A stretch of DNA of 64,000 bases from Dehalococcoidia bacterium. GTDB taxonomy: Bacteria > Chloroflexota > Dehalococcoidia > Lucifugimonadales > UBA1123. A model generated the notes under the pieces. The model searched no databases. It was not told where the DNA came from and saw only the letters and a list, made by a program, of their open reading frames with translations. Every line of letters starts with the position of its first letter. Position 1 is the first letter of the stretch. A program made the translations under genes and the position numbers. This document shows, one piece after another, positions 7,726 through 54,258 of this stretch. The stretch spans positions 234,977 through 298,976 of the forward strand of contig OZ252229.1 of assembly GCA_965249365.1 (NCBI GenBank), given 5' to 3'.

Positions 7726-7738
7726 GTTGTTGCCCCTG

Positions 7739-8074
7739 TTAGTGGTAGTCAACCACTCCCAGAATCGTGATCAACGATATCTGCTCCAGGTCCATTCCGC
7801 CGTCCTCTCGAAGCGGTACCGGGTCATGATTCGGTACGAAGATTAGTCGGTGAGGATGAACCAGGTCGACTGCGAACTGTCCACGCCTGTTGCCTGTCAG
7901 CGGGTGTCATCGGTCCGGTGGAGTTGTCGGCACCAAAGCCAAAGTCCGCGCATTCCTCAAGACTGCCTTTCGCATCTGGATTCTTCGAGCAGTCCGACCG
8001 CCATACCGCCTCCTCAGCTCTCTATCCGAATTGAATACTCTTGCCAGCCTTCTGTTCCTGAAAGTTATGTCCAC
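7739..8074 (-). pseudogene. HigB-like (COG3549 killer-protein) toxin interrupted by an in-frame TGA
   Basis: Reading from GTG 8074: VDITFRNRRLARVFNSDRELRRRYGGRTARRIQMRKAVLRNARTLALVPTTPPDR-TGA(7909-7907)-HPLTGNRRGQFAVDLVHPHRLIFVPNHDPVPLREDGGMDLEQISLITILGVVDYH-TAA. The HPL.G...G and terminal DYH are family hallmarks. Confidence 0.75.
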
Positions 8075-8263
8075 ACAGCGCGCCTCGGTATCGTTACCAC
8101 ATGCGTAATGATCATAGCGGTGCCCGGCGGTGGTATCAGAGTGTCCGAGTAGGGAACACAGGCAATCTCGGTTCCGAACTAGCTGACAGGGGGTCGTAGG
8201 CTGGGAGTTGTTGAAGCTCAAAGTCTCATTCCCTGCTGAGCCTTTTTCCTAACCTGGGATCTA

Positions 8264-9468: not shown

Positions 9469-9511
9469 ACAAGTTCATTGCCTGGGGACATGGCTTCAAC
9501 TCCGAAGCGTC

Positions 9512-10672
9512 TTACGCATTCCCCGTCCACTCATTGAGGACCGCGAGGTAGTCATGGTAGGCAAAGATGCGGCTTCGGCGCCTGCCGGTGATCTCGTGAA
9601 CGATGTTCAAATCCGTCAGGCGGCGCAGGGCAGACGACGCGGCAGGGAACGACAGACCAGTCGACTCGCAGACAGCCTGTACGGTCACAATCGCTCGCTC
9701 CTTGAGCACTTGGTGCACCCTATGGACCGACCCGGCCGAACGCCCCACAGTCTGAATCCGTATCTGGTCCTCGGCGAACATCGAGACCAATCTGTGCGCG
9801 GTCGACGCAGCCGACGACGCAGTCTCGGTCACTCCCTGCAGAAAGAAGTCGAGCCACGCCTCCCAGTCGCCGTCGCGCCTCACTACATCAAGACGACTGT
9901 AGTATTCGTCGCGGTGTTGCCTCAGGAACAGACTCAGGTACAGCAGCGGATTGCTCAGGACACCGTCGACGTACAGCAACAGGGTGATCAGCAGGCGTCC
10001 GATACGTCCGTTTCCGTCCAGGAACGGGTGGATCGTCTCGAACTGAACATGCGCGAGGCCTGCGCGGACGATTGAGTTGATGCCAACGACTTCTGCGTGC
10101 AGGAAACGCTCCAGGTCGGACATGCAGTCTAGGACCGACAACGGTGGAGGCGGGACGAAGTGTGCGTTCCCTGGCCGGCTCCCACCGATCCAATTCTGCG
10201 TCCGCCTGAACTCTCCGGGGAACATTCCACTGCCGCGACCACTCTCCATAAGGATTGCATGCATCTCACGGATCAACCGGTTTGATAGCGGGAAACCGCC
10301 CTGAAGCCTGGCCATCCCGTGTTCGAGCGCAGCGACGTATCTGGAGACCTCGACAACGTCGTCCATCGGGACCCCCGGCACCTCCTCCAACTCGAATAAC
10401 AGCAGGTCGGAAAGGGACGACTGCGTGCCCTCGATTTGGGAGGAAAGGACGGCTTCCTTGCGTACGTATGTGTACAGGAAGAGGTGAGGATCCGGTAGGA
10501 GCGTCGAGATGCTATCGAGTCGTCCCAATGCGAGCAGCGCTCGCTCGATCGCCTGCTGGAGCGATGTGAGATCGAGTGCTGGATCAGGCGGGAGCGGAAA
10601 CGGGACGAACGCCCGCACCGTCTCGCCACCGATGGTCGTGACCTCGTAGACGCCTGTCTTTGAGCGGTTCAC
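9512..10672 (-). CDS. Fic-domain protein (AMPylase-type) with N-terminal inhibitory helix and C-terminal winged HTH
   Basis: Catalytic HPFLDGNGRIGRLL. Inhibitory-type motif SSQIEG, which fits (S/T)xxxE(G/N). C-terminal ...ALRRLTDLNIVHEITGRRRSRIFAY. Confidence 0.88.
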   Translation of the reverse strand: MNRSKTGVYEVTTIGGETVRAFVPFPLPPDPALDLTSLQQAIERALLALGRLDSISTLLPDPHLFLYTYVRKEAVLSSQIEGTQSSLSDLLLFELEEVPGVPMDDVVEVSRYVAALEHGMARLQGGFPLSNRLIREMHAILMESGRGSGMFPGEFRRTQNWIGGSRPGNAHFVPPPPLSVLDCMSDLERFLHAEVVGINSIVRAGLAHVQFETIHPFLDGNGRIGRLLITLLLYVDGVLSNPLLYLSLFLRQHRDEYYSRLDVVRRDGDWEAWLDFFLQGVTETASSAASTAHRLVSMFAEDQIRIQTVGRSAGSVHRVHQVLKERAIVTVQAVCESTGLSFPAASSALRRLTDLNIVHEITGRRRSRIFAYHDYLAVLNEWTGNA

Positions 10673-10708
10673 GGTACGTTCGCCCTCTCGGTACCTGCCA
10701 AACGATCG

Positions 10709-10731
10709 CTTAATAACTCAAATAGTTATTA
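10709..10731. promoter_or_regulatory. 9-bp perfect inverted repeat TTAATAACT-caaat-AGTTATTAA in an AT-rich patch upstream of fic
   Basis: Read directly. Located 37-59 nt upstream of the fic start in an otherwise GC-rich genome. Confidence 0.4.
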
Positions 10732-10886
10732 AAGGTTAGGTGCTTAAGTATAAACAATGGGACGGCGATGAGACAATACCGTGCAGACTGATTGATGTCC
10801 GGAGTGGCAGACGTAGCCGATCGCCCGTCCCCGTCTCCTGCATCGCGGGATATTGACAGATTCAAGGACGACGAAGTCCGGAAGAG

Positions 10887-10961
10887 TGGGCCGGCTGGGA
10901 TTCGAACCCAGGACACCCGGATTAAAAGTCCGGTGCTCTGGCCAAGCTGAGCTACCGGCCC
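10887..10961 (-). tRNA. tRNA-Lys (anticodon UUU)
   Basis: Reverse complement GGGCCGGTAGCTCAGCTTGGCCAGAGCACCGGACTTTTAATCCGGGTGTCCTGGGTTCGAATCCCAGCCGGCCCA folds as a 7/4/5/5-bp cloverleaf. Anticodon loop is CTTTTAA. CCA is not encoded. Confidence 0.95.
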
Positions 10962-11277
10962 ACGGTCGGACGGTCTATCGCGGGGGTTCGATCATCATAG
11001 CCGGGCCGTGGTTCGAGGGACAACCGGTACCGCAATACACGGATTCGCCACCCAACAATTGGGTTGCATTATCTGTCGGTGCAGAGCGACATCCGACGCA
11101 CGAGCCCCGAAGCGTCATCTTGAGCGGAGTTAAACGGAGTCGAACCGTCTCCCGTCGATCAGCGTCGAGGGCGTGAGATGCTTCGTCGGCCAGAGGCCGC
11201 CACAGCATGACAGGAAGTGGGGGAGTTGGACCCAGAGTCTTCGTTTAACGATTGAAGTGCGATGTCGGTGGGTTGTC

Positions 11278-11295
11278 GGCGGTTCGCGAACCGCC
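11278..11295. repeat. palindrome GGCGGTTCGCGAACCGCC (same core as the terminator at 56617-56638)
   Basis: 19 nt ggcggttcgcgaaccgccc are shared with 56619-56637. Confidence 0.7.
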
Positions 11296-11560
11296 CGTTC
11301 AAGTATCCCGCGGATGGGCAGCGGATTTGGGCGGTACACTCGATCGCCGACCAGTCCACGCTCGGACTAATCGAGACTCTCGTGGAAGGTGAGAGATGGC
11401 CGGAATCAGAATCGATCGGCCCTCGAGAACGACTGACAAGGAGGTTGACGACCGATTGTGGCAGTAATACCATGCTGCCCATGAAATCCGGTTGGTTCCC
11501 CTCTAGCAGAGCAGGCAATCTGCCTGGCTTTCTCCCGATAAGTGCTCCGCGAGGCTCCCC

Positions 11561-12220
11561 ATGATGGATGATCATATCGAAGCAGTGCTGGTTGTTGAGC
11601 GAGGTGTGGCCGACTTCAGCGTCGTCCCGATCGAGCACTCAAACTGTGTACTCGGGAAGTCGGCAGGAGCGAGCATAATTCTCGACAATCCATACGTGTC
11701 TCGTCGACACGCACGAATCCGCCAGCGCAGCGGTGAATTCGAAATAGAGGACCTAGGGAGCAAGAACGGCACCCTGCTCAACGGGAGCCGTATACGTTCG
11801 GGCCGTCACCCGTTGCAGCCGGGCGACCGAATCGAGCTGGGTCGAGGACAGGTGGTCCTTCGATTTCAGATGGGCGGGTCTACCGTAACCCTGCCTCCGG
11901 ATCACAAGCCGGACGTCGAGGACCTGGTAGTCAACTCCCGTTCCCGCGAGGTTTGGGTACGGGGTCGAAGACTGGACCCTCCCCTCTCCCGCAAAGAGTT
12001 CGATATTCTGAGTCTCATGTTCTCAAATCGCGGTCAGGCCTGCAGCAAGGACGACATAGCCATACACGGCTGGCCCGAACGACCCGATGGCGACGTCCCC
12101 GACCAGGACATCGAGCAGTACATCCGGCGCCTTCGGCTTCGCGTAGAGCTCAATCCGTCCAGGCCGACGCTCATCGTGAACGTCAGGGGATTCGGATACC
12201 GGCTCTCGAGTCGAAGATAG
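11561..12220 (+). CDS. FHA domain fused to an OmpR/PhoB-type winged-helix DNA-binding domain
   Basis: FHA: LGKSAGASIILDNPYVSRRHARI...EDLGSKNGTLLNG...GDRIELG. wHTH: LSRKEFDILSLMFSNRGQACSKDDI...IEQYIRRLRLRVE...VRGFGYRL. Confidence 0.85.
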   Translation: MMDDHIEAVLVVERGVADFSVVPIEHSNCVLGKSAGASIILDNPYVSRRHARIRQRSGEFEIEDLGSKNGTLLNGSRIRSGRHPLQPGDRIELGRGQVVLRFQMGGSTVTLPPDHKPDVEDLVVNSRSREVWVRGRRLDPPLSRKEFDILSLMFSNRGQACSKDDIAIHGWPERPDGDVPDQDIEQYIRRLRLRVELNPSRPTLIVNVRGFGYRLSSRR

Positions 12221-12302
12221 GTAATTCACGGGGTCTGGTTCGGATGCCTGTCATTTCAGGACCCCGGAGCTCCAGCGTTCGAGCCCAATCGGCTCTCCAA
12301 CG

Positions 12303-12330
12303 TTCAGCATCTTTTCAGGTCTTGTTCAGG
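12303..12330 (+). promoter_or_regulatory. three direct TTCAG(C/G) repeats phased at 11 bp (candidate wHTH operator)
   Basis: TTCAGC 12303, TTCAGG 12314, TTCAGG 12325. Located between the FHA-wHTH gene and the 3xFHA gene. Confidence 0.45.
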
Positions 12331-12462
12331 AACCCGAGTGGGAATCAGGTTACTATTGGCAGTGTTCACACCTGCTGAAGTCTCTTGCTGAACACCAACT
12401 GTCAACGTGAATCCGATATGCGGTCGTAGGCGAAAAGGATCCTCGGCCAGAGAGGTAGGAAA

Positions 12463-13950
12463 ATGGATCTCGGATACAGCGGAATTCTGGCGGTCTGGTA
12501 CGACACCTGGCTGTCCATGCTCGGATTTGTTGTCGCGCTTGCAGTCGCGTTTATGGTCGTCGTACGGGAGGACTGGCGTGGTCCCGGACCGGCAATAGTG
12601 GCGGTGCTCGTTCTGCTGGTCATTGCGGCCCTGCCATTGGTTTTTCTCCGCATGGGCATGGCCCTAATGATCGAGGACACGGCGCCGGTTGGCTACATCA
12701 GCCTGATCGGGACGCCACTGGCGATTGCACTTGGCATCGCACGGCTCTATCAACGCTGGGCGGCGGAACGTGAAGCTCTCGACGACGACTCGGTCTACGA
12801 CGAATACTCAGACGTCTATGATGGTGGACATACCATGACGGTCGTGGAGGACGTCACACCTCAACCTGGTCTGGACGTGTCTACTCCTGCTGATCCTCTT
12901 ACCGCACAGGGAACCACCGCGTGGCTGCGCTTCACCTCGGGGCCGAAGTCCGGCCAGTCTATCCCACTCTCCACCGGAACCGTCAATCTTGGGAGAGGCA
13001 TCGACAACGACGTGGTGTTGGACGACGCGTCTGTGAGTCGGAGTCACGCGACGATTGCCTTCCAGGGCGACCAATACTACATCGAAGACGCCGGAAGCAT
13101 GAGCGGCACCCTGGTGGAGGGCGTACCTGCCACCAGAACGGTGCTCGCGTCCGGGGCAACGCTGAAAATCGGCGACTCCGAGCTGGTGTTCATGCGGACA
13201 GAGGGAGACAGTCCGTTGACTGAATCCGGGACCGGTGCAAGCGGTACAGGGCCGGCCGGTCCTGGTGAGACAGTCGTGATGCAACGAGCAGGCAGGCAGA
13301 TCATGGCCTGGCTCGCGGTCGTCTCCGGACCGGCGAAAGGCGCCTCATACCAGCTCAACGAGGGCGACAACACCATCGGACGGTCGCCTGACAATGACAT
13401 GGTTGTCGAGGACACCGCAATCAGCCGCCGGCACGCACTTGTCAGGGTCCAGGACGACCGAATCGTGTTGGTTGATCTCGGGAGCAGCGGCGGAACGGCC
13501 GTCGGGGGTGGGAGACTCGAGGGCAAAGTCGTACCGGCAGGCGGTGTGGTCACCGTGGGTCAGACTCCGCTCCGGGTTGTGCAGATTGAAGCGCAGGACC
13601 AGCTGGAGCAGGGAACGATGTCGGGAGCGACGATTGTCGACACGCCTTCGGGCGGTTCCGCAGTCCTCATCGCACAGTCGGGCCCAGACAGTGGGCGAAG
13701 CTTCAACCTGTCGGAAGGCGACAACTCGATCGGACGGGACCCTTCCAGCGACGTCCTGCTCTCCGACGACTCGGTCAGTCGCCGGCACTCTTTGATCAGG
13801 GTCGAGGCCGATCGCATCCAGGTCTTTGATCTTGGAAGCCGGTCGGGAACGGTCGTTGACGGCGAGCTAATTCAGGGCCACGAGTTGACAGCCGACGACA
13901 CGATCTCAATTGGACGCTCAGAAATCGTACTAATGCGACCGAGTTCCTAG
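12463..13950 (+). CDS. membrane protein with three tandem FHA domains
   Basis: Three N-terminal hydrophobic spans, then three copies of (L/I)GR....D(V/M)V(L/V).D..(V/I)SR.H(A/S)......(Y/I/V)...D(A/L)GS..GT.V.G. Confidence 0.88.
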   Translation: MDLGYSGILAVWYDTWLSMLGFVVALAVAFMVVVREDWRGPGPAIVAVLVLLVIAALPLVFLRMGMALMIEDTAPVGYISLIGTPLAIALGIARLYQRWAAEREALDDDSVYDEYSDVYDGGHTMTVVEDVTPQPGLDVSTPADPLTAQGTTAWLRFTSGPKSGQSIPLSTGTVNLGRGIDNDVVLDDASVSRSHATIAFQGDQYYIEDAGSMSGTLVEGVPATRTVLASGATLKIGDSELVFMRTEGDSPLTESGTGASGTGPAGPGETVVMQRAGRQIMAWLAVVSGPAKGASYQLNEGDNTIGRSPDNDMVVEDTAISRRHALVRVQDDRIVLVDLGSSGGTAVGGGRLEGKVVPAGGVVTVGQTPLRVVQIEAQDQLEQGTMSGATIVDTPSGGSAVLIAQSGPDSGRSFNLSEGDNSIGRDPSSDVLLSDDSVSRRHSLIRVEADRIQVFDLGSRSGTVVDGELIQGHELTADDTISIGRSEIVLMRPSS

Positions 13951-13958
13951 GAGTTCAG

Positions 13959-14951
13959 ATGATGGAGCGCCGTGGAGGCAGGAGAACCACCGCTGACGGG
14001 GGCGCGATCGAGAGCGTCGTTACGCTTGGCGCGCGGACCGATATAGGACTGAAGCGGTCAGCCAACCAGGACGCATACGTCGCGCTGATCGGCGCCAATG
14101 CCCCCTCCGACTGCGACGCGCTGCTTGCTGTTGCTGACGGGATGGGCGGACACAAGGCCGGGGAAGTCGCCAGCGACATGGCGGTCCGCTCTTTGGTCAG
14201 AAAGCTCGGGCGCCCGTCCCAAGGCGACAGGACGCCCGTGACAGGCGGACTCGTCGTGACAATCCAGCGCACCGTCTCAGAGATCAACTCGGAAGTCCAT
14301 AAAGCCGCTTCCCGCCCGGAGACGCGTGGGATGGGGACGACGCTGACGATGGCGGTCCTCACCGGTCAGTACCTCACTCTCGGCCACGTTGGAGACAGCC
14401 GCGCCTACCTCCTTCGCGACGGGCAGCTCCACCAACTTACGAGGGACCACAGTTGGGTCGCCGAGCAGGTGGCGCGCGGGTCGATCTCACCCGCGGACGC
14501 AGAGAGGCATCCTAGACGCAATATATTGACGCGGGCGATCGGGGTGGACCCCAGAGTGGAGGTCGACACCACGACTGTAGAGGTCAAGGAGCGGGACCTC
14601 GTCTTGCTCGCATCGGACGGGCTCCACTCCCTGGTTACGGACGGCGAAATCGCCGAGATTCTCGGGGGCGGCGATCCGCAGGCTGCCAGCAGGGAGCTTG
14701 TCGGCCGGGCAAACGCCCTCGGTGGCAACGACAACATCACCGTCGTTGTCGTCAGGATCGAGAGCCTGGGTCCGCGAAGGCCGTCGGCCATGGGGGTTCA
14801 TGACGCCACGACCGTACTGTCCGGCGGGTCTCCAGCCCCAAGCCTGCGTGGGGCGCTGGCGATCGCCGGGAAGGTCTTGTCGGCCCCTCTGTGGCTGCCT
14901 GTCCTATTGCTTTACCGGACGGCGAGGCGGCTGTTCCGCCGCGGATCGTAG
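13959..14951 (+). CDS. PP2C-family Ser/Thr protein phosphatase with C-terminal membrane anchor
   Basis: NQDAY...VADGMGGHKAGEVAS...GMGTTL...GDSRAYL...ASDGL...GGNDNITVVVV. C-terminal LSAPLWLPVLLLY. Confidence 0.9.
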   Translation: MMERRGGRRTTADGGAIESVVTLGARTDIGLKRSANQDAYVALIGANAPSDCDALLAVADGMGGHKAGEVASDMAVRSLVRKLGRPSQGDRTPVTGGLVVTIQRTVSEINSEVHKAASRPETRGMGTTLTMAVLTGQYLTLGHVGDSRAYLLRDGQLHQLTRDHSWVAEQVARGSISPADAERHPRRNILTRAIGVDPRVEVDTTTVEVKERDLVLLASDGLHSLVTDGEIAEILGGGDPQAASRELVGRANALGGNDNITVVVVRIESLGPRRPSAMGVHDATTVLSGGSPAPSLRGALAIAGKVLSAPLWLPVLLLYRTARRLFRRGS

Positions 14952-15158
14952 CAGTCGGTTTCAACGACCTCAAGCACTTCGACTTGAGACGGGTGGACGC
15001 CCGCGCCACCAGAGGATAGGCCCCGATGAGTACGGGCTTCCAGACGGGGCGGGATGGGTCCGCGAGCGCCTGTGGAGCTGCCGCTCCGGGCAGTGCTCTG
15101 ATTGAGTGCCGGAGGTTCCGGCGCGACTGGCTAGTATCGAAGATACGCAGTGGAGTGA

Positions 15159-18100
15159 ATGGCTGAGCATAGGATGCAGCAGCAGATCATAGGCAGATAC
15201 CAGATCCTCGAGCAGATCGCGGCCGGTGGCCAGGGGACGGTCTATCGAGCGTGGGACACTTCAACCGGAAGAGTCGTAGCGCTCAAGGTGCTGCATCCCC
15301 ATATCGCAAACGACTCCGACGCCCTGGAGAGATTCTACCGCGAAGCCCGCATCGCGGCCTCAGTCACTCATCCAAACGTCACCCAGATATTCGAGGTCGG
15401 ACAGGACGGGGACTACCACTTCATCTCCATGGAGTACCTGCCGATCAGCATCTCCAGCCTCGTAGAGGCACAGGGGAGCCTTCCGGTCGAACGCGCCACT
15501 GCAATCTGTCTCCAGGCAGCTCTAGCGCTGAATGCTGCGAGCCGTACCGGAATCATCCACCGAGACATCAAGCCCCAGAACCTCTTACTTGCCCAGGATG
15601 GAACGGTAAAGGTCACCGACTTCGGCATCGCAAGGGCCACCGCGCTTTCTACGATGACCCGAACGGGCGCTCTGATGGGGACTCCGTACTACATGTCACC
15701 CGAGCAGGCAAGGGGCAGCCGCGTTGACACGCGGTCAGATCTCTACTCCTTGGGCATCGTCCTCTACCAGCTGCTGACCGGAACCATCCCGTTCGACGCC
15801 GAGACCCCTTGGGAGGTGATCCGACAGCACATCGAGGAACAGCCACCGTCTATACGTCAGTCGAGGCCGGACATCCCGGCCGCCCTTGAAGAGGTGGTGA
15901 ACCGGTGCCTGGAGAAGGACCCGAACCTTCGGTTCCAAACACCCTCCGATTTTGCTCAGGCACTTCGACAGGCGGTGCCCGTCGCTCGGACGAGACCCGA
16001 ACCAACCGAGACACCGCCAGCGCCTGTCGGGCCCTCGCCCACTCGGCGGCCGGCCGCTCTGCGGCGGCCGGTTACACCAGAGCGGCCGGTCACTCCCCAG
16101 ACGCCGACTACACCGACGGAACCGGATTCTGCTCGACGACCGGCTCTCCAACCGCAGCCGAAGCCGGATACGTCCTCGAGCGCCGACCGGGGACGAGCCG
16201 GCAGGACCCCAACGGGGACCCGGCCCGCGAGAACATCCCGAGACGTCCGCGCCAGACGCGGGCGAAGCTGGAGGTGGTACGCAGGGATCGTCCTTCTCGG
16301 TGTGCTCGTTCCGATAGGGATTATCGCACTCATAGCTCAGCTCGCTGGGTCGGGCGGGATTTCGGGGCCTCTTCCGACGCCGATTCCGAACACCCCGGTC
16401 CCACCGACTGCTACGCCGGCGCCCGTCGTGATTGTGCCGCCGCCGGACACGCCGACGCCTGAGGTCCGCGTCACCGCAACACCGCCGCCTACGGCTACAC
16501 CCGTTGCGGTCGTACCGCCACCGGGCACCCCCACGCCGACGCCCGGTGCGGCCGTGACGCCTGTTCCAGTGAACAACGCCCCCGAGGCTGTATCTGCGAT
16601 CGACGCTCTGAATCTATCGATTGGCGCCGACGCAGAGTTGGTGGACGTCATGGGCGCGTTCCGGGACCCGGACGGCGACAGTCTCACCTACTCGGTTTCG
16701 TCGTCGGACTCGAACGTCGCGACGGCGAGCATGTCCGGCCCGGTTGTGACGGTCTATCCAATCGGCGCAGGCCGGGTGACGATCACTGTGACGGCCAGTG
16801 ATTCGGAAGGCTTGGCCGTGTCTCAGACCATCAACGTTACCGTCGACGAGACACCGGCTACTGTCACGATACCCGACGCGGGCCTCCGCGAAGCGATTTA
16901 CGCGGCGTTGGAAAAGGAGAGCAGCGAGCCGCTGACAGCGGCTGAGATGACGACTCTTCTACGCCTTGAGGCCGACAACAGGGGGATAGTCGATCTCACA
17001 GGGCTCGAATACGCCACAGACCTCGAGGAGTTGATAGTTGAGAACAACTCGATTTCGGATCTGTCCCCATTGGCTGGCTTGAGCCAGCTTGTGTATTTGA
17101 TTCTCAGCGGCAACTCGATATCTGATATCTCACCGTTGACTGCCCTGGACAGGCTCACAAACCTCTATCTCTGGGATAACTCGGTGTCTGATCTATCTCC
17201 TCTCGCCAACTTGAATGAGCTCAGAAACCTGGGGCTATTCGGCAATTCAATCTCCGACTTGTCTCCGCTGGCGGGCTTGTCCAACCTGAGGAGTCTGGAT
17301 CTTGGGACAAACTCCATTTCAGACCTTTCAGGACTCGAGGTCTTGGCCGAGTTGGAGACCCTTCGGCTCGGCATCAACTCGATCACTGACGTCTCTGCGC
17401 TGGCCGGTCTAAGGGAGCTTCAGGACCTCGAGCTCGGAGGCAACTCCGTCACAGAGGTCTCGCCACTGGCCAGTCTGACAAACCTAAGATATTTGGGGCT
17501 CTGGAATAACGCAATATCCGACCTTGAGGCATTGGTCGCCAACCCTGGACTGGGAGAAGGGGACGAGATCGACGTCACCCTCAACCCTCTCAGCGACGAC
17601 TCGATCAGCACACACATCCCGACCTTGCAGAAGAGAGGCGTAAACGTACTGCTCGATGCCAGTGAAGTCACCGATCTGGTAGAACCGCCGCCACCCGTCA
17701 CAGACCTTATTGTGGAGAGCATCACGAGGGTGCCCATGGACGCCCTCGTGGGAGACACCGTCACCATTACGGCGACGGTCACGAACCTGGGGCCGGGAAC
17801 TGTGGGATCGTCGGAAGTCCGGTTCATCGTGGATGACTCGACAGATCCATTTGCGGTAGCCGAGACCGCTGAGCTCGTTCCAGGGAACGCGGAGGTTGTA
17901 ACTGTCCCGTGGAAGACCGAGGCGGGTTCTCACACGTTCAGAGTAGTCGCAGAAGTGAGGGACGACCTCGACGAGTCCGACGAGTCGAACAACGAATTGA
18001 CGGTTACGTTTGAGGGTGGAGACCGACATCGCCTCGTTTGGCAGTTTGAGATAGACAGCTCAGGGTATGTCTCTACACCGGCAGTCGCTGATGGCGTTGT

Positions 18101-21100
18101 ATATGTTGGCTCCAGAGACGGCCATCTATACGCGCTGGACGCGCGAACCGGAGAGATTGAGTGGCGGTCCGAGGTGCCCGGTGGCGCAGCTTTCCCTACG
18201 CTTGCCGACGCGTCGGTCTACGTCGGCTCTTGGGGTAGAGGCTTGTTCAAGCTGAACGCGTCGACCGGCGAGCTGCTCTGGCGCTTCGAGACGGTCGGTC
18301 GGGTGTGGTCCACTCCGGCCATCGTCGATGGGGTCATCTACTTTGGATCTGGGGACAGTCACGTCTACGCGGTGAACGCCTCCACCGGGGAGTTGCTCTG
18401 GCAGCATCAGACTGGGGACGCGGTGTACTCTTCCCCGGCAGTTGTTGGCGGGGTCGTATTCATCGGGTCTACCGACAGTCGCGCCTACGCGCTGGACGCC
18501 GCGACCGGCCAGCCGCTGTGGGAACACGAGACGGGCGACGCCGTGTTCTCTTCCCCGGCGGTGGTCGACGCGGTGGCGTACATCGGGTCGGATGACAGCT
18601 ACGTCTACGCGCTCGACGCCGCCACCGGGGAGGTGGTCTGGCGGCATGAAACTGGAGGCTACGTGCAGTCCTCCCCAGAGGTCGTTGACGGGATTGTGTA
18701 CGTCGGGTCTGGCGACCGGAACTTGTACGCGCTCGGTGCGTCGTCGGGAGAGGTTGTTTGGACATACGGAATTCCCGTTGGCGAGCCCGGGTCACCAAAG
18801 GTCCACGATGGAACAGTCTACGTGACTGCGGGCAGCGACGAGGCGAATGCGATCGTCGCTCTCGATGCGGCCAACGGACAGTCTCTGTGGCGATTCGACA
18901 CCGGCGACGGCTGGATATCCTCGGCCCCAGCGCTTGCTGACGGCCTGGTGTACGTGGGATCTGCCTCCGGCCACGTGTACGCGTTGACGACCGGGGTAGA
19001 AGGCGCAACCGATTCCGGACCTGCGCCGCTACCTGACCTGATCGTCGAGAGCGTCACCTGGGAACCGCAAAACCCGTCCGTCGGCGACCCCGTCACGTTC
19101 AGAGTGACCGTCAGAAACCAGGGGATGGCGGACGCCGTAGGCCCGTTTCCGGCAGTCTATGCCGTCTCCGGTGAAACAACCCAGCGCGGCACCGCAACCA
19201 TCGACGGCATCGCCCAAGGCGGCAGACAGGTCCTGGACTTCAATTGGGAGGCCGAGGCTGGTGAACACACGGTCAGCATCGTAGTTGACCCCGATGGAAC
19301 CGTTGATGAGTCCGACGAGTCGAATAACGAGGCGGTCGTTGCGTTCGATGAGACCCTATTAGCGGACCTGTTGGTCGAGAGCATCAACTGGGAGCCCGAG
19401 AGTCCGTCAATCGGAGACTCGGTCAGGCTGTTGGTGGTAATTGCAAACGAGGGCGCCGGCGACGCAGGACCTTCGAGTGTCCAGTTCTTTGTCGACGGGG
19501 GACTCGAGGCCTCCGAAACCGTGAGCGGAATCGGTGCGGGCAAACAGCGAACCAAGGAATTCGTATGGATAGCCCAATCTGGGCCCCACTCGATCCGGAT
19601 CGTCGTGGACCCAGATGGACAACTCACAGAGTCGGACGAGTCCAACAACGAGTCTACCGTGGAGTTCGATCTGGCAGACGAGACTGACACGACAGAGACG
19701 CCTCCTTCAGCGGCTCGGGAACCCTTCGGCGACCTCTTCAAACTTACCGATTTAGAAGTTGCTCCGTCCGATGCGCCGACCGCGGTGTACCAGCAGTTCG
19801 GCAGCGACTGGCGAGTCGCGGACTGGAACGACCTCAGGCTGGCCTGGGAGGTCTATCGCGATGACCTGATGACCGTTTTCGAAGGGGTGGAGCCTCTGGT
19901 GACCTGGTTCGGTGAACCCAAATGGGCCGATGAACGCTGGTTCTTCATCCGGGACCACAACGGTAATAAACCGGGGGGGTTCCATGCGCACAACCAACTC
20001 GGAGGAGACGAGCTGTCCCTCGGTTCATGGTTCCGAAGCCCCAATGAGTGGACTGTGCTCGCGGTCCGGACCGACTTCAAAGTTGACCCGCTAGGACCGG
20101 ACGACCACGGCGACTCTCTAACCACGGCATCAACTCTGACTGTCGGGGAGCGGCTCTCGGGTGACATCGAAGTAGAAGACGACGTGGACTACCTCTTCTT
20201 CCGCGGTGAACGGGGAGTCGAGTACGTCGTGAAGGCTCTCGTCGGGTCAAACCCAGATACGTTCATTACACTGCTCGGACCGAACGGTTCGGTTCTAGCC
20301 GAGGATGACGATAGCGGAGAGAACCAGGGGTCAATGATTATCTGGAGAGTCAGGACTCCGGGGAGCTACTACGTTAAGGTGAGCGGGTTCGCATCGGATG
20401 ACACCGGTTCGTATACGGTGACTCTGAGCAAGTCCTCTGACGACCACGGAGACACGGCTGGCGAAGCGACACGACTCTGGCCGGGTGTGTCGCACGAGGG
20501 GAACATTGAAGAGAGCGACGATCAGGACTTCTTTTCTTTCCGCGCGGAGGAAGGGGTTGAATACGCCATCGAAACCGATCTCGGGACCAATCCGAACACA
20601 GTGATCGCGCTGTACGGCCCGGACGAAGACTTCGTCGATCGGGATGACGACGGGGGAGAGGGGGCTGCTTCCGCCCTGGTTTGGACCGCCCCTGTCTCAG
20701 GGACGTTCTATATCCGCGTGAGCGGTCGGTACGACAACAGCGTCGGCTCGTACTCACTGTCATTGGACGCCGAACGGTCCAGCTCAGGTAACTCCGTGTA
20801 CCTAGTCTCTGGCGAGCTCAACCGAGAGCAGCTCAATGTTGCCCGACCCGTCGCAACCGTGGCGCCAGAGCAGCGGATCGACGGAACCGTTACGATCGCC
20901 GTCGCAAACCACAACCGACCGGATCGGGTTTTTCCGTTAGGGGCAACGCCTTCATGGGGAAACCACAAAGAGAGCTACTGGATCATCGACGCCTGGGTCC
21001 CTCCGGGTGCGGTAACTGAATATGACGTGTACTTCGGCCTCGTCGCGCCGTCTGCACCAGGCGCCTACGCCATTACTTTCGCCGCCGCAGCCGCGGAGTC

Positions 21101-21293
21101 ACTGGGCCACGCAATGTCGGCCACACAGTCGGCGTCCGGGGACCCGCTCTGGAACAACGGAGACGACGTCGCGTCGTGGGACCTCTCGCAGGTCGAGTTC
21201 GCCCAGGTGAACGGCTACGTCGTAGGAACGACTCACCCTGATACCCCAGTCGAGTTCGGAGCGGCGTCGATTTCGGTAGTTGTTACGCGTTGA
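15159..21293 (+). CDS. giant receptor Ser/Thr kinase: Hanks kinase - TM - Ig/cadherin-like - LRR - CARDB - PQQ-type beta-propeller - 2x CARDB - unknown - 2x PPC - unknown
   Basis: GGQGTVY..VALK..HRDIKPQN..DFG..SPEQ. TM IVLLGVLVPIGIIALIAQL. About ten 22-aa N(S/A)ISDLSPLAGL LRRs. Repeated VYVGS.D..(L/V)YALDA.TGE..W blades. LIVES(I/V)...GD.V......N.G....DESDESNNE CARDB-like units. DDHGD....A..L..G....G.I...DD.D(Y/F)F.F PPC-like units. Confidence 0.85.
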   Translation: MAEHRMQQQIIGRYQILEQIAAGGQGTVYRAWDTSTGRVVALKVLHPHIANDSDALERFYREARIAASVTHPNVTQIFEVGQDGDYHFISMEYLPISISSLVEAQGSLPVERATAICLQAALALNAASRTGIIHRDIKPQNLLLAQDGTVKVTDFGIARATALSTMTRTGALMGTPYYMSPEQARGSRVDTRSDLYSLGIVLYQLLTGTIPFDAETPWEVIRQHIEEQPPSIRQSRPDIPAALEEVVNRCLEKDPNLRFQTPSDFAQALRQAVPVARTRPEPTETPPAPVGPSPTRRPAALRRPVTPERPVTPQTPTTPTEPDSARRPALQPQPKPDTSSSADRGRAGRTPTGTRPARTSRDVRARRGRSWRWYAGIVLLGVLVPIGIIALIAQLAGSGGISGPLPTPIPNTPVPPTATPAPVVIVPPPDTPTPEVRVTATPPPTATPVAVVPPPGTPTPTPGAAVTPVPVNNAPEAVSAIDALNLSIGADAELVDVMGAFRDPDGDSLTYSVSSSDSNVATASMSGPVVTVYPIGAGRVTITVTASDSEGLAVSQTINVTVDETPATVTIPDAGLREAIYAALEKESSEPLTAAEMTTLLRLEADNRGIVDLTGLEYATDLEELIVENNSISDLSPLAGLSQLVYLILSGNSISDISPLTALDRLTNLYLWDNSVSDLSPLANLNELRNLGLFGNSISDLSPLAGLSNLRSLDLGTNSISDLSGLEVLAELETLRLGINSITDVSALAGLRELQDLELGGNSVTEVSPLASLTNLRYLGLWNNAISDLEALVANPGLGEGDEIDVTLNPLSDDSISTHIPTLQKRGVNVLLDASEVTDLVEPPPPVTDLIVESITRVPMDALVGDTVTITATVTNLGPGTVGSSEVRFIVDDSTDPFAVAETAELVPGNAEVVTVPWKTEAGSHTFRVVAEVRDDLDESDESNNELTVTFEGGDRHRLVWQFEIDSSGYVSTPAVADGVVYVGSRDGHLYALDARTGEIEWRSEVPGGAAFPTLADASVYVGSWGRGLFKLNASTGELLWRFETVGRVWSTPAIVDGVIYFGSGDSHVYAVNASTGELLWQHQTGDAVYSSPAVVGGVVFIGSTDSRAYALDAATGQPLWEHETGDAVFSSPAVVDAVAYIGSDDSYVYALDAATGEVVWRHETGGYVQSSPEVVDGIVYVGSGDRNLYALGASSGEVVWTYGIPVGEPGSPKVHDGTVYVTAGSDEANAIVALDAANGQSLWRFDTGDGWISSAPALADGLVYVGSASGHVYALTTGVEGATDSGPAPLPDLIVESVTWEPQNPSVGDPVTFRVTVRNQGMADAVGPFPAVYAVSGETTQRGTATIDGIAQGGRQVLDFNWEAEAGEHTVSIVVDPDGTVDESDESNNEAVVAFDETLLADLLVESINWEPESPSIGDSVRLLVVIANEGAGDAGPSSVQFFVDGGLEASETVSGIGAGKQRTKEFVWIAQSGPHSIRIVVDPDGQLTESDESNNESTVEFDLADETDTTETPPSAAREPFGDLFKLTDLEVAPSDAPTAVYQQFGSDWRVADWNDLRLAWEVYRDDLMTVFEGVEPLVTWFGEPKWADERWFFIRDHNGNKPGGFHAHNQLGGDELSLGSWFRSPNEWTVLAVRTDFKVDPLGPDDHGDSLTTASTLTVGERLSGDIEVEDDVDYLFFRGERGVEYVVKALVGSNPDTFITLLGPNGSVLAEDDDSGENQGSMIIWRVRTPGSYYVKVSGFASDDTGSYTVTLSKSSDDHGDTAGEATRLWPGVSHEGNIEESDDQDFFSFRAEEGVEYAIETDLGTNPNTVIALYGPDEDFVDRDDDGGEGAASALVWTAPVSGTFYIRVSGRYDNSVGSYSLSLDAERSSSGNSVYLVSGELNREQLNVARPVATVAPEQRIDGTVTIAVANHNRPDRVFPLGATPSWGNHKESYWIIDAWVPPGAVTEYDVYFGLVAPSAPGAYAITFAAAAAESLGHAMSATQSASGDPLWNNGDDVASWDLSQVEFAQVNGYVVGTTHPDTPVEFGAASISVVVTR

Positions 21294-21302
21294 CTGGAGA
21301 TG

Positions 21303-21341
21303 TTCAGGTGAACTTCAGAAAGCCATAAGCACATGTTCAGG
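21303..21341 (+). promoter_or_regulatory. TTCAG(G/A) direct repeats phased at 11/22 bp upstream of the second kinase
   Basis: TTCAGG 21303, TTCAGA 21314, TTCAGG 21336. Located 65-100 nt before the STK2 start. Confidence 0.4.
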
Positions 21342-21405
21342 ACTGGCTGGGGACTGGTGGTCTACTATTTCGGCAGCCAAGTGAGCAAGTCCGGACCGGC
21401 GAACT

Positions 21406-24400
21406 GTGGGAGTAGTCATGCAGCAACAGACGATAGGCAGATACCAGATACTCGAGCAGGTTGCCGCAGGCGGCCAGGGTACCGTCTATCGCGCGTGGGA
21501 CACCTCGACCGGGCAGGTCGTCGCGCTCAAGGTGCTGCACCCGCACCTGTCAGCAGACCCGTCCATCCTCGAGCGCTTCCACAGGGAAGCGCGCCTCGCG
21601 GCTTTCGTCTCGCATCCGAACATAACCCAGATCTTCGAGGTTGGCCAGGACGGCGACAGGCATTTCATCTCCATGGAGTACCTCCCGGTCGGCATACACA
21701 GCCTCATCGAGGCGCAGGGAAGCCTCCCTATCGAGCGTGCCGCCGAGATCTGCCTACAGACAGCTCTTGCGCTCCAGGCAGCCAGCGACCGTGGGATCAT
21801 CCACCGCGACATCAAGCCCCAGAACCTCCTTCTGGGTCAGGACGGCACCGTCAAGGTTACCGACTTCGGCATCGCGAGGGCCACGGCACTTTCAACGATG
21901 ACCCGGACCGGGGCCCTTATGGGAACGCCCCACTACATGTCACCCGAGCAGGCGCAGGGAACTCGTGTCGATATCCGGTCCGACATCTACTCTCTTGGGA
22001 TCGTGCTTTATCAGCTCCTCACCGGCGACCTGCCGTTCGAGGCGGACACGCCTTTCGAACTCATGCGCCAGCACATCGAGGAGCGGCCAGCGTCGGTCCG
22101 CGGGGCGCGATCGGCGGTTCCGCAGGCCCTGGAACGTGTGGTCAACACGTGCCTTGAGAAGGACCCTGATCGTCGATTCCAAACGCCCAACGAGTTCGTC
22201 CGGGCCCTGCGCCAGGCCGTGCCCGGCGCACGCGCTGCGCCGACACCGCAGCCGCCGATTCAGGCGCCGCCTGCGCAGCAACCTGCCTCCGCGGCCGAGA
22301 CTGCCGGTCGTCCTCCTGGTGTACCCGAGCAGCGGCCTGAAACCGCGCGGCCTCAAAGTCCCGGACCACGAGGGGAGGAACACGCCGGCAGGGGCCGCCC
22401 CCGGTGGATCTGGGTAGGGCTGGTGGTGTCCATCCTTGTGGCAGTCTCGGCCGTCGGCGTGACCTTCTGGGTCATCGACATGGCGCGTCGAGACGGCGCC
22501 ATCGTTGAGCCACTTCGTACACCGGTGCCAGCGACACCGGTTCGGATCGTGGTCGCTGCGCAGCCGACCCATACGCCGACCGGGATCTCGCCGGTCGTGG
22601 TTCCCCCGACGACCGTTCCGCCACCGACCAACACGCCCTTCGTCGTGGCGCCACCGGAAGTCGCGCCTCCGACGATCGACCCGACCGCAACTCCAGCGTC
22701 GGTCGTAACGCAGTCTACCAACACACCGACGGCTACTTCCGTACGCACCGTCGTCCGGATGACCGCCACGCCTACGGCAACCCCCGTACGCACCGTCATC
22801 CAAATAACCGCCACGCCTACGGCGACTCCCTCCCCCGTCGCAGCTCCACCCACGAACACCGCGACCGCAACTCCCTCCCCCGTCGCAGCTCCACGCACCA
22901 ACACCCCCACGGCTACTCCTTCCACTATCGTGCTGCGACCAACAAGCACGCCTCGACCGCGACCAACGAACACTCCTCTGCCGAGTCCTACCAACACCCC
23001 GAGGCCTCGACCAACTGCCACCCACACCCCAACGCCAGTCCCAGCAGTTGTGGCGCAACCGACAGCTGTGTCTGACGATCAAGGATTGCCCGCGGAACCG
23101 TCGGGGAGCGTCACGGTAGTCGTCCCACGCGTCTACAGACCACACGGGCTGCCTCGATCGTGCCCGGGTGGATGTTCAGAAGCAATGTACCTGTCGGGAG
23201 TGACCGAGACCCTATTGAACACAAGGTTTGAGAACGAGGGATCGGTCGCTGCCGAGCCGATGCTCGCCGAGTGGTGGGAGTTCGACGACAGCCTCCGGGT
23301 CCTCACGTTCGGCTTACGCCAAGACGTGATGTTCCATAGTGGCTGGGGCGAGATGAACGCATGGGATGTCGTCTTCAGTCTAGAAGATGCGATCATGAAT
23401 CCAGAGTCAACCCACGCTGCCAGATCATTCGAATCGATCGCGGCTGTATTTCTCTTAGACGACTTCACGGTGCGGGTAGAATTCAGGGAGTTCGACCCCA
23501 GGGGTGCCCTGTACTACTTGACACCGTTTGATTCTTCTGTTGGGATCGTTTCCGCCGACGTCTCGGAGTCCCACGACGAGGACGAGCTGCAGAGCCTCCT
23601 GATCGGGGTCGGCCCATTCGTGGTGGACGAGTGGGTCCCCCGTGAGAGTATTCGTTTGACCGCGCACCAGGAATACTACGGCCGCCCCCTCGGACTCGGG
23701 CCCCACGTTGAAAGTCTGCAATGGGTGGAAATCAATGAGGCTGCGGTACGAATGGCCTTTATTCATGCGGGACAGGCTCATCTGAGTACCTTAATGGATG
23801 CTGGACATGCGCGGGAACTCCTGAGTTCGGGACTGTTGCTGGAAAACAACGGCGGATCGGGAATGATGGGCGGCGTTTCTTTCGCCGGCAATTACTGGGA
23901 GGCACACAACCCATCGAACGGAGAAACGCTGGAGAGGACACGGGACATCAGCAAGCCTTGGATCGGTGACCCGTTTGAATTCGGACCGAGCTACGACGAG
24001 TCAACCCCCTCGATGGTGCGATCGCGGATGGTCAGGGAGGCCCTGGCCACGGCAACAGACCGAAACCTGATAAATGAGATACTGCTGCACGGGCTGGGCT
24101 CAGTCAACTATCAGCCCTCCCTGTCGGTCAACAGCCCCCTTCACGAGGACTGGATGCGCTGGGCATTCGACCCAGATCGGGCGTGGCAGCTTTTGGCAGA
24201 GGCGGGCTACCCTGACGGATTCGAGATGGACCTCTGGGTCGGACAGTCCCCAAGTAGGACAAGACTGGGCGAGGTTTTGGCAGCCATTTGGGCGGAGTAT
24301 CTTGGTGTCGAGATAGTTTTGGAGAGGGGATCTGTCCCGGAGTACAATGTAGGCCTCTTGGATAGAACTACGTCAACACCCGGTGTCAACCTTTGCTTTG

Positions 24401-24735
24401 GGCCTGAGACGAACCCTCTCTATCCGTCCGACTGGCCGAGAGGATTCTACGCGAGCAGCATGTCAGACTTTAGGGCTGGAATCGGTCAGGAGCTACCCCA
24501 CGCTTCTGAGATTTATAATGCCGCAATCGCTGCACCTGACAAGGGCACGCGTGAGACTCTCACGTTGGTTTCCATCGAAATCAACAGGTACTGGGCCAAC
24601 TGCGTCGGGGTCATCGAGCAGCCCAGGTGGACAGCGTTGAATCCAGACTTGGTCGCGGAATGGGGCTTCCTCCCGACTCTTTCCGGCACGCTGGGGGGTA
24701 TCACCAACGTCCGGTCGATCAAGGTCAGGCAGTAG
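21406..24735 (+). CDS. receptor Ser/Thr kinase fused to a family-5 (DppA/OppA-type) solute-binding domain
   Basis: The kinase domain is a close paralog of STK1. TM WIWVGLVVSILVAVSAVGVTFWVI. Pro/Thr linker. Ectodomain has GVGPFVVDEWVPRESIRLTAHQEYYG and FDPDRAWQLLAEAGYPDGFEMDLW, typical of SBP_bac_5. Confidence 0.85.
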   Translation: MGVVMQQQTIGRYQILEQVAAGGQGTVYRAWDTSTGQVVALKVLHPHLSADPSILERFHREARLAAFVSHPNITQIFEVGQDGDRHFISMEYLPVGIHSLIEAQGSLPIERAAEICLQTALALQAASDRGIIHRDIKPQNLLLGQDGTVKVTDFGIARATALSTMTRTGALMGTPHYMSPEQAQGTRVDIRSDIYSLGIVLYQLLTGDLPFEADTPFELMRQHIEERPASVRGARSAVPQALERVVNTCLEKDPDRRFQTPNEFVRALRQAVPGARAAPTPQPPIQAPPAQQPASAAETAGRPPGVPEQRPETARPQSPGPRGEEHAGRGRPRWIWVGLVVSILVAVSAVGVTFWVIDMARRDGAIVEPLRTPVPATPVRIVVAAQPTHTPTGISPVVVPPTTVPPPTNTPFVVAPPEVAPPTIDPTATPASVVTQSTNTPTATSVRTVVRMTATPTATPVRTVIQITATPTATPSPVAAPPTNTATATPSPVAAPRTNTPTATPSTIVLRPTSTPRPRPTNTPLPSPTNTPRPRPTATHTPTPVPAVVAQPTAVSDDQGLPAEPSGSVTVVVPRVYRPHGLPRSCPGGCSEAMYLSGVTETLLNTRFENEGSVAAEPMLAEWWEFDDSLRVLTFGLRQDVMFHSGWGEMNAWDVVFSLEDAIMNPESTHAARSFESIAAVFLLDDFTVRVEFREFDPRGALYYLTPFDSSVGIVSADVSESHDEDELQSLLIGVGPFVVDEWVPRESIRLTAHQEYYGRPLGLGPHVESLQWVEINEAAVRMAFIHAGQAHLSTLMDAGHARELLSSGLLLENNGGSGMMGGVSFAGNYWEAHNPSNGETLERTRDISKPWIGDPFEFGPSYDESTPSMVRSRMVREALATATDRNLINEILLHGLGSVNYQPSLSVNSPLHEDWMRWAFDPDRAWQLLAEAGYPDGFEMDLWVGQSPSRTRLGEVLAAIWAEYLGVEIVLERGSVPEYNVGLLDRTTSTPGVNLCFGPETNPLYPSDWPRGFYASSMSDFRAGIGQELPHASEIYNAAIAAPDKGTRETLTLVSIEINRYWANCVGVIEQPRWTALNPDLVAEWGFLPTLSGTLGGITNVRSIKVRQ
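22741..22920 (+). repeat. four 45-bp in-frame units (two pairs) in the Pro/Thr linker of STK2
   Basis: gtacgcaccgtc..accgccacgcctacggc twice (22741, 22786). tcccccgtcgcagctccac twice (22831, 22876). Confidence 0.85.
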
Positions 24736-53901: not shown

Positions 53902-54258
53902 ATGGAAGCTCGCGAGCTCGTAAAGCTCGAACCGAACCCGAACATCGACAGGTTCACCCCCGGCGACACCGTTCAGGTGGGAGTCAGGGTAACCGAGGCA
54001 AACCGGACTCGCACGCAGGTTTTCGAGGGCGTGGTTATCCGCACTCGTGGCGGTGGTCCGGGCGCATCGTTTACCGTCCGCCGGGTCAGCTACGAGATCG
54101 GCGTCGAACGCACGTTCATGACCCACTCGCCCAACGTCCAATATGTCAATCTCGTTCGGCGTGGTCGCGTCCGGCGAGCGCGCTTGTACTACCTCCGAGG
54201 TCGATCTGGCCGGGCCGCCCGCATCAGGGAAGACCGGAGAGAACGCGCCCAGAGGTAG
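53902..54258 (+). CDS. rplS: 50S ribosomal protein L19
   Basis: [58 protein letters not shown]. Confidence 0.96.

Follow-up and report, generated by a model that had tools for sequence, protein, structure and literature searches.

A gene cluster in a 64,000-nucleotide (nt) stretch of a Dehalococcoidia bacterium genome (contig OZ252229.1, positions 234,977 to 298,976 of the forward strand; hereafter the window) probably encodes a dedicated phosphothreonine signalling pathway. Five co-directional long open reading frames (ORFs) at 11561-24735 on the + strand specify a protein that joins an FHA domain to an OmpR/PhoB-type winged helix (given the working name REG), a membrane protein with three FHA domains (the 3xFHA protein), a PP2C phosphatase and two receptor Hanks kinases (Table 1). 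We favour, with moderate confidence, a reading in which receptor kinases with exchangeable sensors control REG, an activator of its own signalling genes, and the phosphatase resets the circuit. An earlier note, prepared from the sequence letters, had described the same five genes with the same domains, and both the ORF list and the Pfam profiles used for the domain calls in the window agree with that description.

REG and the products of the neighbouring genes

Both domains of REG are recovered by Pfam where the note had placed them. The FHA domain occupies residues 30-94 (PF00498, E = 3.8e-22, 78.9 bits against a cut-off of 20.7) and the Trans_reg_C domain residues 141-215 (PF00486, E = 6.7e-16, 58.6 against 26.2), the latter match covering profile positions 5-77 of 77. 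No Pfam match to Response_reg or to BTAD was found in REG, and the FHA domain takes the position of the receiver; in NCBIfam, no model scored above its cut-off for this protein. An AlphaFold2 model of REG, built on 120 homologues, has a mean predicted local distance difference test score (pLDDT) of 83.8 and contains a β-sandwich (residues 8-104) and a winged helix (residues 120-216), both modelled confidently. Residues 107-119 form a linker that is predicted to be disordered (pLDDT below 50), and the secondary structure of the winged helix is typical of Trans_reg_C.

Sequence searches of the Protein Data Bank (PDB) and Foldseek both place the FHA domain of REG closest to OdhI/GarA and to Bdellovibrio DgcB. 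The Foldseek probability for OdhI, GarA and DgcB is 1.00, with root-mean-square deviations of 1.3-1.7 Å; for GarA/OdhI, the sequence match has an E value of ~3e-11 and the template modelling (TM) score is ~0.85-0.9 of the target. The winged helix is closest to the effector domains of response regulators, and its best sequence matches are HP1043-like, RegX3, VicR/WalR and MtrA. By sequence search and by Foldseek, no solved chain in the PDB spans both domains.

Conservation in the FHA pocket and the linker was counted in the best 120 of at least 840 relatives, and again in a second set of 63 diverse family representatives. Six pocket residues are invariant among the close relatives (G32, R48, S67, N69, G70 and T71, 120/120 each), S47 and H50 are each kept in 119/120, and position 68 is K in 108/120 and R in 10/120. 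These counts bear out the SRRH and NG boxes that the note had read from the sequence. Its caveat that GK stands where the canonical GR dyad is expected was also correct, in that K33 aligns with the Arg of OdhI/GarA. Arg occupies position 33 in 40 of the 63 diverse representatives, so Arg33 is probably ancestral and was relaxed in the clade of the window, where A, N, S, T or G is found in 38 of the 120 close relatives.

The linker carries a conserved motif of the form T-φ-T-L-P, in which T108 is present in 120/120 close relatives, T110 in 109/120, L111 in 100/120 and P112 in 87/120; T108 is also kept in 56 of the 63 distant representatives. Thr108 lies directly after the last FHA strand, within the low-confidence segment of the model. 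Given its invariance, the hydrophobic residue at +3, the disordered surroundings and the linkage of REG to kinases, Thr108 is a plausible candidate for both a phospho-acceptor and an FHA ligand. In the winged helix, residues of the recognition helix and the α2-α3 loop (W171, P172, E173, R174, D178, V179 and D181) are invariant or near-invariant in the relatives, which fits a shared DNA site and a conserved contact surface.

The 3xFHA protein keeps GR and SRxH in all three of its FHA domains, and the Asn of its NG boxes is replaced by S, G and S (SMSGT, SSGGT and SRSGT). Its degeneration is therefore opposite to that of REG, which keeps the NG box and is without the Arg. The PP2C gene lies downstream of the 3xFHA gene as the note had stated, separated from it by 8 nt (13951-13958) rather than by the 9 nt given there. 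Its product scores 249 against the NCBIfam Stp1/IreP cut-off of 230, carries the motifs DGMGGH and GGNDN, and has a transmembrane segment at residues 299-319.

Both kinases have intact HRDIKPQN and DFG boxes, as described earlier. Over 272 residues the two kinase domains share 79% identity, with no difference in the activation loop, and the sequences past the transmembrane segments are unrelated. Pfam finds Big_9, LRR, a PQQ β-propeller, three CARDB and two PPC domains in the ectodomain of kinase 1, and SBP_bac_5 at residues 617-974 of kinase 2, so the note was right to call the ectodomains unrelated. These features suggest that the cytoplasmic portions (encoded at 15159-16358 and 21406-22500) derive from a duplication, with a later exchange of sensors. 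A separate predicted copy of the operator and promoter described below precedes kinase 2, whose coding region begins at GTG 21406 or possibly at an ATG four codons later. Among NCBIfam models, the kinases match the PknB/Stk1 model best, with scores of 350 and 355 that fall below the PknB_PASTA cut-off of 450, and the FHA domains of the cluster match the FhaB/FipA and OdhI models best.

Table 1. Coordinates of genes, sites and predicted regulatory elements in the window, and gene orders at loci of REG relatives (locus labels beginning with L).
Feature	Position or loci	Strand	Basis or remarks
REG, 219 residues	11561-12220	+	FHA, linker, OmpR/PhoB winged helix
Codon of K33, where the FHA GR dyad canonically has its phosphate-binding Arg	11657-11659	+	Alignment with the OdhI Arg
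Codons of linker motif T108-V-T110-L-P112, candidate phospho-acceptor/FHA-docking motif	11882-11896	+	Conservation, AlphaFold2
3xFHA membrane protein, 495 residues (FhaB/FipA-like)	12463-13950	+	Pfam 3x FHA, E = 5.6e-49; 3 N-terminal transmembrane segments by hydropathy; FHA domains cytoplasmic
PP2C Ser/Thr phosphatase, 330 residues (PstP/Stp1-like), C-terminal membrane anchor	13959-14951	+	Pfam PP2C_2/PP2C
Receptor Hanks kinase 1, 2044 residues	15159-21293	+	Pkinase 14-261; Thr/Pro-rich juxtamembrane region; one transmembrane segment, 371-402
Receptor Hanks kinase 2, 1109 residues	21406-24735	+	Pkinase 13-260; one transmembrane segment, 332-361; Thr/Pro-rich spacer
Predicted σ70-like REG promoter, TTGACG-17 nt-TACCAT	11445-11473	+	Consensus scan, 9/12 matches; ~88 nt upstream of ATG
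Operator 1 (predicted): TTCAGC, TTCAGG, TTCAGG; 11-bp spacing, starts 12303/12314/12325	12303-12330	+	REG-3xFHA intergenic region
-10-like TACTAT, 20 nt past operator 1	12351-12356	+	Predicted promoter of 3xFHA-PP2C-(kinase 1)
Operator 2 (predicted): TTCAGG, TTCAGA, degenerate unit, TTCAGG; 11-bp phase, starts 21303/21314/21336	21303-21341	+	Kinase 1-kinase 2 intergenic region
-10-like TACTAT, 21 nt past operator 2	21363-21368	+	Predicted promoter of kinase 2
HTH + Peptidase_M78 (IrrE-like) gene	6625-7752	-	
Insertion sequence transposase	8294-9295		Upstream of cluster
SoFic-like Fic protein	9512-10672	-	PADLOC SoFic, E = 7e-118
tRNA-Lys	10886-10961	-	
Order REG > 3xFHA > PP2C > Hanks kinase	L002, L087, L088, L090, L091		
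Order REG > PP2C > kinase	L003-L005		
Beginnings of both orders	L016, L017, L019, L022, L024, L025		Short metagenome contigs
Gene order broken or cut short by insertion sequence elements	L086, L089, L090, L091		

Predicted operators and promoters

The note had proposed a DNA-binding output for the cluster, and this is supported by a conserved, phased direct-repeat operator that we predict within it. In its general form, three or four copies of (T/G)TCAG(G/C) stand in direct orientation with an 11-bp period. In the window, TTCAG-N6-TTCAG occurs three times against 0.08 expected, a count reached in 0 of 100 shuffles, and all three matches fall within the two cluster intergenic regions that hold the predicted operators. 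The orthologous REG-3xFHA intergenic region carries the triple repeat at L002, L089 and L091, a 0/22 version at L090, and a GTCAG variant at L088 and L087. TTCAG is the form in the closest relatives of the window and GTCAG the form in more distant ones. A second, kinase-upstream module with a 0/11/33 layout is present at L002 (13647-13683), and the PP2C-kinase intergenic region of L087 contains a weaker, two-repeat match.

A blind rule gave the same picture. Specifically, at least three TCAG cores in 11-bp phase were sought on both strands, with first-order resampling (n = 40) as the control. This rule returned 16 sites in 352 kb of family loci, against 0.3 expected and a resampling maximum of 2, and all 16 sites lie beside REG or inside the cluster. 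In all modules examined, 20-21 nt separate the proximal repeat from a TAnnnT hexamer. The locus L092, which was fetched later and took no part in pattern discovery, has four GTCAGG repeats, 20 nt and then TACCAT just downstream of REG.

At the predicted sites, the promoter-proximal repeat overlaps the -35 region. The consensus scan reported no -35 match at the operator-bearing promoters, unlike at REG's own promoter. PhoB-type class II activation classically shows this arrangement, with phased direct repeats across the -35 region of a promoter that has no -35 box itself. REG is the most likely protein to bind the predicted repeats. Because the operator promoters are without their own -35 box, its most likely role is class II activation, in the manner of PhoB, of genes in its own pathway, namely 3xFHA-PP2C-(kinase 1) and kinase 2.

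Several other candidates were rejected. CTGACA-N5-CTGACA occurs in the window at chance level (5 against 4.9 expected); the window instead carries the TTCAG variant, in the opposite orientation. TGTCGG-N5-TGTCGG at 11263-11279, upstream of REG, is a two-mismatch operator variant at chance level, and a one-mismatch operator match at 53972 lies inside an rplS-like coding sequence. An ORF of 100 codons at 11262-11564, whose end overlaps the REG start by 4 nt (ATGA), is probably no gene; it has no Pfam match and contains the predicted REG promoter.

Distribution and synteny of the REG family

A search of 5.8 billion proteins yielded at least 840 REG relatives at E ≤ 1e-3. The best 120 are 49-70% identical to REG, are ~217 residues long and all combine FHA with Trans_reg_C. 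Few relatives carry names; those that do are labelled 'Dehalococcoidia bacterium' or 'Chloroflexota bacterium', and the products are called 'hypothetical', 'FHA domain-containing' or 'winged helix'. Among 1.84 billion representatives clustered at 50% identity, a profile search returned 694 proteins at E ≤ 1e-30, and ~70 of the best 150 profile matches are full-length two-domain proteins of 200-250 residues. When contigs of species-labelled genomes were scanned with the REG protein alone as the query, the sole match was one Planctomycetota FHA fragment. Full-text literature searches found no paper on a protein with FHA and an OmpR-type winged helix. As far as these searches reach, the architecture is common in databases and apparently unstudied.

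In most loci with adequate flanking DNA, REG relatives are syntenic with FHA, PP2C and Hanks kinase genes. The note had named two outcomes within reach of sequence analysis that would count against its idea, namely missing profile support for FHA or Trans_reg_C and a lack of synteny with kinases or phosphatases; neither check refuted it. Linkage to Hanks kinases was found in three gene orders and down to 32% identity (Table 1). Two very distant members (35% and 32% identity), which have the canonical GR, adjoin divergently transcribed Hanks kinases. Kinase linkage is thus shared across the family and returns in more than one gene order. It is the strongest available evidence for a functional tie between kinase and regulator, and the tie proposed in the note is well supported by it. 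Flanking genes differ in every relative's locus, and the kinase ectodomain also varies among relatives (OpuAC, PQQ + PKD + SBP_bac_5, or none) while the cytoplasmic set stays constant.

At the loci examined, K, R, N or S at position 33 of REG coincides with the presence of the kinase cluster. All six Ala33 members (L007, L008, L010, L012, L014 and L086) have no kinase or phosphatase gene in the available flanks of up to 10 kb. These six orphans have the same operator design in the opposite direction. In the four that have enough upstream sequence (L007 1164-1752, L010 3573-3927, L014 7092-7636 and L086 9361-9851), the predicted operator and -10 element face a divergent gene for a small zinc-ribbon protein (CPRC...CxxCGW). 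This protein matches no Pfam family significantly, and the window contains no homologue of it.

Additional variations were seen among the relatives. At L093 (8820-9536), the locus of the 35% identity member, a gene for an extracytoplasmic function (ECF) sigma factor follows REG, and REG is divergent from two Hanks kinases, a different output wiring. The cluster kinases at L087 (13314-19345) and L090 (14428-16810) bear, or precede, solute-binding domains or genes of the OpuAC (glycine-betaine) type, which hints that some versions of the cluster sense compatible solutes. Insertion sequence elements are very frequent in these genomes and repeatedly break the cluster. One lies between REG and the 3xFHA gene at L090, the 3xFHA gene is truncated at L089, and L091 has a kinase without an ectodomain next to an insertion sequence element. 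Two such elements are present in the window (8294-9295 and 52625-53791).

The flanks of the cluster in the window are unrelated to it. Upstream are tRNA-Lys, which is the only hit of an Rfam scan, a Fic gene and an insertion sequence transposase; downstream are genes for a major facilitator superfamily transporter, Fpg, ribosomal protein S12 and elongation factor G. The Fic gene, insertion sequence, IrrE-like gene and tRNA-Lys at 6625-10961 have the look of a small islet, mobile or defensive, at a tRNA gene.

Proposed mechanism, alternatives and related systems

The pathway that we favour would begin with two receptor kinases that share one type of cytoplasmic kinase and differ in their sensors, one with a family-5 solute-binding domain and the other with an LRR/β-propeller/CARDB ectodomain. 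The kinases would relay their state to REG, a soluble factor with an FHA domain in place of the Asp-receiver. REG would then occupy the tandem (T/G)TCAG(G/C) repeats, one helical turn apart, where the proximal repeat occupies the -35 region of two promoters. Under such autoregulation, the kinases would feed back positively and the phosphatase negatively.

For the molecular coupling, including the gating of DNA binding by phosphothreonine that the note had proposed, we suggest a sequence of steps that is tentative and draws on analogy with GarA/OdhI. The FHA domain of REG would dock on a phosphorylated kinase, whose activation loop TRTGAL offers a Leu at +3 from the phosphothreonine, and the docked kinase would phosphorylate Thr108 in the linker. 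Phosphorylated Thr108 could then be read in trans, either by the FHA domain of a second REG molecule or by the membrane-bound 3xFHA protein. Reading in trans by REG would favour a head-to-tail assembly suited to tandem repeats, and PP2C would reverse it. FHA domains that read a phosphopeptide of their own protein have precedents in DgcB (PMC6733907) and in GarA/OdhI, to which titles of matched PDB entries also point.

Several observations weigh against this picture. Position 33 is variable among the 120 close relatives (K76/A25/R6/N6/S4/T2/G1), and phosphopeptide binding by the REG FHA domain may be weak or altered with Lys33. Thr108 is also kept in the Ala33 subclade without adjacent kinases, so its conservation need not reflect the neighbouring kinases. 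Furthermore, Thr108 is only ~4 residues past the last FHA strand. The termini of the FHA fold lie opposite the peptide-binding loops, a geometry that rules out binding in cis and leaves only the FHA domain of another molecule within reach. The juxtamembrane regions of the kinases hold few T-x-x-(I/L/V) motifs. In addition, the AlphaFold2 model gives no arrangement of the two REG domains (predicted TM score 0.51), and the assignment of REG to the repeats comes from position and conservation only.

The loss of the canonical Arg in the window's clade gives some room to a simpler explanation, in which REG is a plain transcription factor of the kinase operon and its FHA domain is a phosphate-independent module for dimerisation or protein binding. 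The kinases would not control REG, and synteny would follow from expression control alone. The Ala33 subclade fits this idea, as it uses the same operator design at the divergent zinc-ribbon gene with no kinase or phosphatase nearby, and phospho-independent oligomerisation through FHA has been discussed for EspM (PMC7002343). However, the near-complete conservation of S47, R48, H50, S67, N69, G70 and T71 is hard to explain without a ligand pocket, the distant members keep the canonical GR and adjoin kinases, and the residue at position 33 tracks kinase synteny and its loss at the loci examined. We consider this explanation unlikely. A second scheme reverses the sign of the switch: the phosphorylated kinase, or the 3xFHA protein through phosphorylated Thr108, would hold REG at the membrane and off the DNA, phosphorylation would mean 'off', and PP2C would free the regulator. 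Such sequestration would suit a REG promoter that looks constitutive and a membrane-anchored 3xFHA protein that retains GR and SRxH in every FHA domain and is co-conserved with REG. However, L003-L005 have REG, PP2C and a kinase without the 3xFHA gene, and the replacement of the NG-box Asn in all three FHA domains also speaks against the scheme, which we judge quite unlikely.

It is very unlikely that the cluster serves mainly as a Chloroflexota version of the fhaB-pstP-pknB module for growth and envelope functions, with REG as a peripheral addition that has little role in output. Best matches of its FHA domains to the FhaB/FipA and OdhI models, of the kinases to PknB/Stk1 and of the phosphatase to Stp1/IreP point toward such a module, yet no other part of the locus is as constant as REG and its operator, and the ectodomains are of solute-binding and propeller types that vary among relatives. 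Moreover, Pfam finds no rodA, pbpA or PASTA-encoding genes in the cluster or its flanks, just as the note had reported. We give almost no weight to an anti-phage defence system built on these kinases. The kinase domains do match the PADLOC models PD-T4-6 and mad6, and a SoFic-like gene and an insertion sequence element lie just upstream, but the PADLOC matches cover the generic kinase domain only, REG and the 3xFHA protein have no match and PP2C has a weak one. Both kinases are receptor-type proteins with a transmembrane segment and a large ectodomain, and the flanking genes differ in every relative.

Comparison with known systems helps to place REG, which resembles an OmpR/PhoB regulator on the DNA side and an FHA switch of the GarA or DgcB type on the input side. 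EmbR of Mycobacterium tuberculosis, which acts with the kinase PknH, is likewise a winged-helix factor with an FHA domain that is tied to a Hanks kinase. It is composed of a SARP-type winged helix, BTAD and a C-terminal FHA domain. The two FHA domains have detectable similarity (E = 2e-5, also seen by Foldseek), and EmbR matches REG through this domain alone. In the PDB matches, the FHA domain of EmbR comes last in the chain (residues 300-375 of 388), whereas REG has the order FHA then winged helix in 219 residues. REG does not belong to the EmbR/SARP group because it has no BTAD and has the reversed domain order; the contrast drawn in the note holds, and the comparison with EmbR is one of analogy only.

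Like OmpR/PhoB response regulators, REG has a complete Trans_reg_C domain. The tandem repeats next to its gene, which are its predicted sites, have an 11-bp spacing and overlap the -35 region. The Pho box similarly consists of tandem direct repeats with 11-bp spacing that overlap the -35 region. REG differs from these regulators in having FHA in place of the receiver and its phospho-acceptor Asp, and in having a Hanks kinase and PP2C as partners rather than a histidine kinase. The absence of a receiver places REG outside the response-regulator family.

GarA and OdhI have the FHA domains closest to that of REG, and they share with it a conserved Thr-x-Thr in a flexible segment beside the FHA domain. 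These proteins regulate metabolic enzymes, and the tail at their N terminus that bears the acceptor Thr is long and folds back in cis. They have no DNA-binding domain, and Thr108 of REG, unlike their acceptor, is too near the FHA C-terminus for a cis fold-back.

Other proteins place an N-terminal FHA domain ahead of an output domain. DgcB of Bdellovibrio (FHA-GGDEF), whose structures 6hbz, 6hc0 and 6hc1 were matched in the PDB, resembles REG in having the FHA domain at a position that a receiver often takes in related enzymes, and its activating phosphopeptide comes from its own N-terminal region (PMC6733907). DgcB differs from REG in that its output is the synthesis of cyclic di-GMP and its FHA pocket fits the consensus. 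EspM of mycobacteria has an N-terminal FHA domain followed by a DNA-binding output (PMC7002343), but with a non-OmpR helix-turn-helix and a length of 363 residues. In Myxococcus xanthus, σ54 enhancer-binding proteins that contain FHA (Jelsbak et al. 2005, PMID 15668379, as cited in PMC11980068) are described as combining an N-terminal FHA domain with a transcription output; unlike REG they are AAA+ σ54 activators, with no OmpR-type winged helix.

At the level of gene order, the note had likened the cluster to the actinobacterial fhaA-fhaB-pstP-rodA-pbpA-pknA-pknB locus. This is fair as an analogy, given that both arrangements combine one or more FHA proteins, a membrane PP2C and two tandem Hanks kinases in co-directional genes. 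It does not extend to membership. The cluster of the window differs from the actinobacterial locus in having no rodA, pbpA or PASTA, in its solute-binding and propeller ectodomains, and in its built-in transcription factor and predicted operator.

The type of circuit is known in outline, and this widespread FHA-winged-helix version is apparently unstudied. What is new here is the geometry of operator and promoter, the feedback wiring, the invariant Thr108 and the two wirings found within the family. To our knowledge, Hanks-type kinases are common in bacteria and direct, dedicated routes from them to transcription are few, with EmbR as the usual example. The REG family provides a compact and apparently dedicated route of this kind, in which receptor kinase, phosphatase and FHA scaffold are combined with an FHA-winged-helix factor. 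It is possible, though doubtful at present, that Thr phosphorylation replaces Asp phosphorylation as the switch for OmpR/PhoB-type assembly, giving a widespread Chloroflexota pathway that is two-component-like and built entirely from Ser/Thr-kinase parts with interchangeable sensors. If this is true, the receiver would have been swapped for a phosphothreonine reader with the tandem-site logic of OmpR-type regulators retained. The kinase-linked (K/R/N/S33) and orphan (Ala33) wirings represent a natural experiment on the use of the FHA pocket, and the variable ectodomains, which include solute-binding proteins and propellers, amount to naturally occurring exchanges of sensor on a single signalling core.

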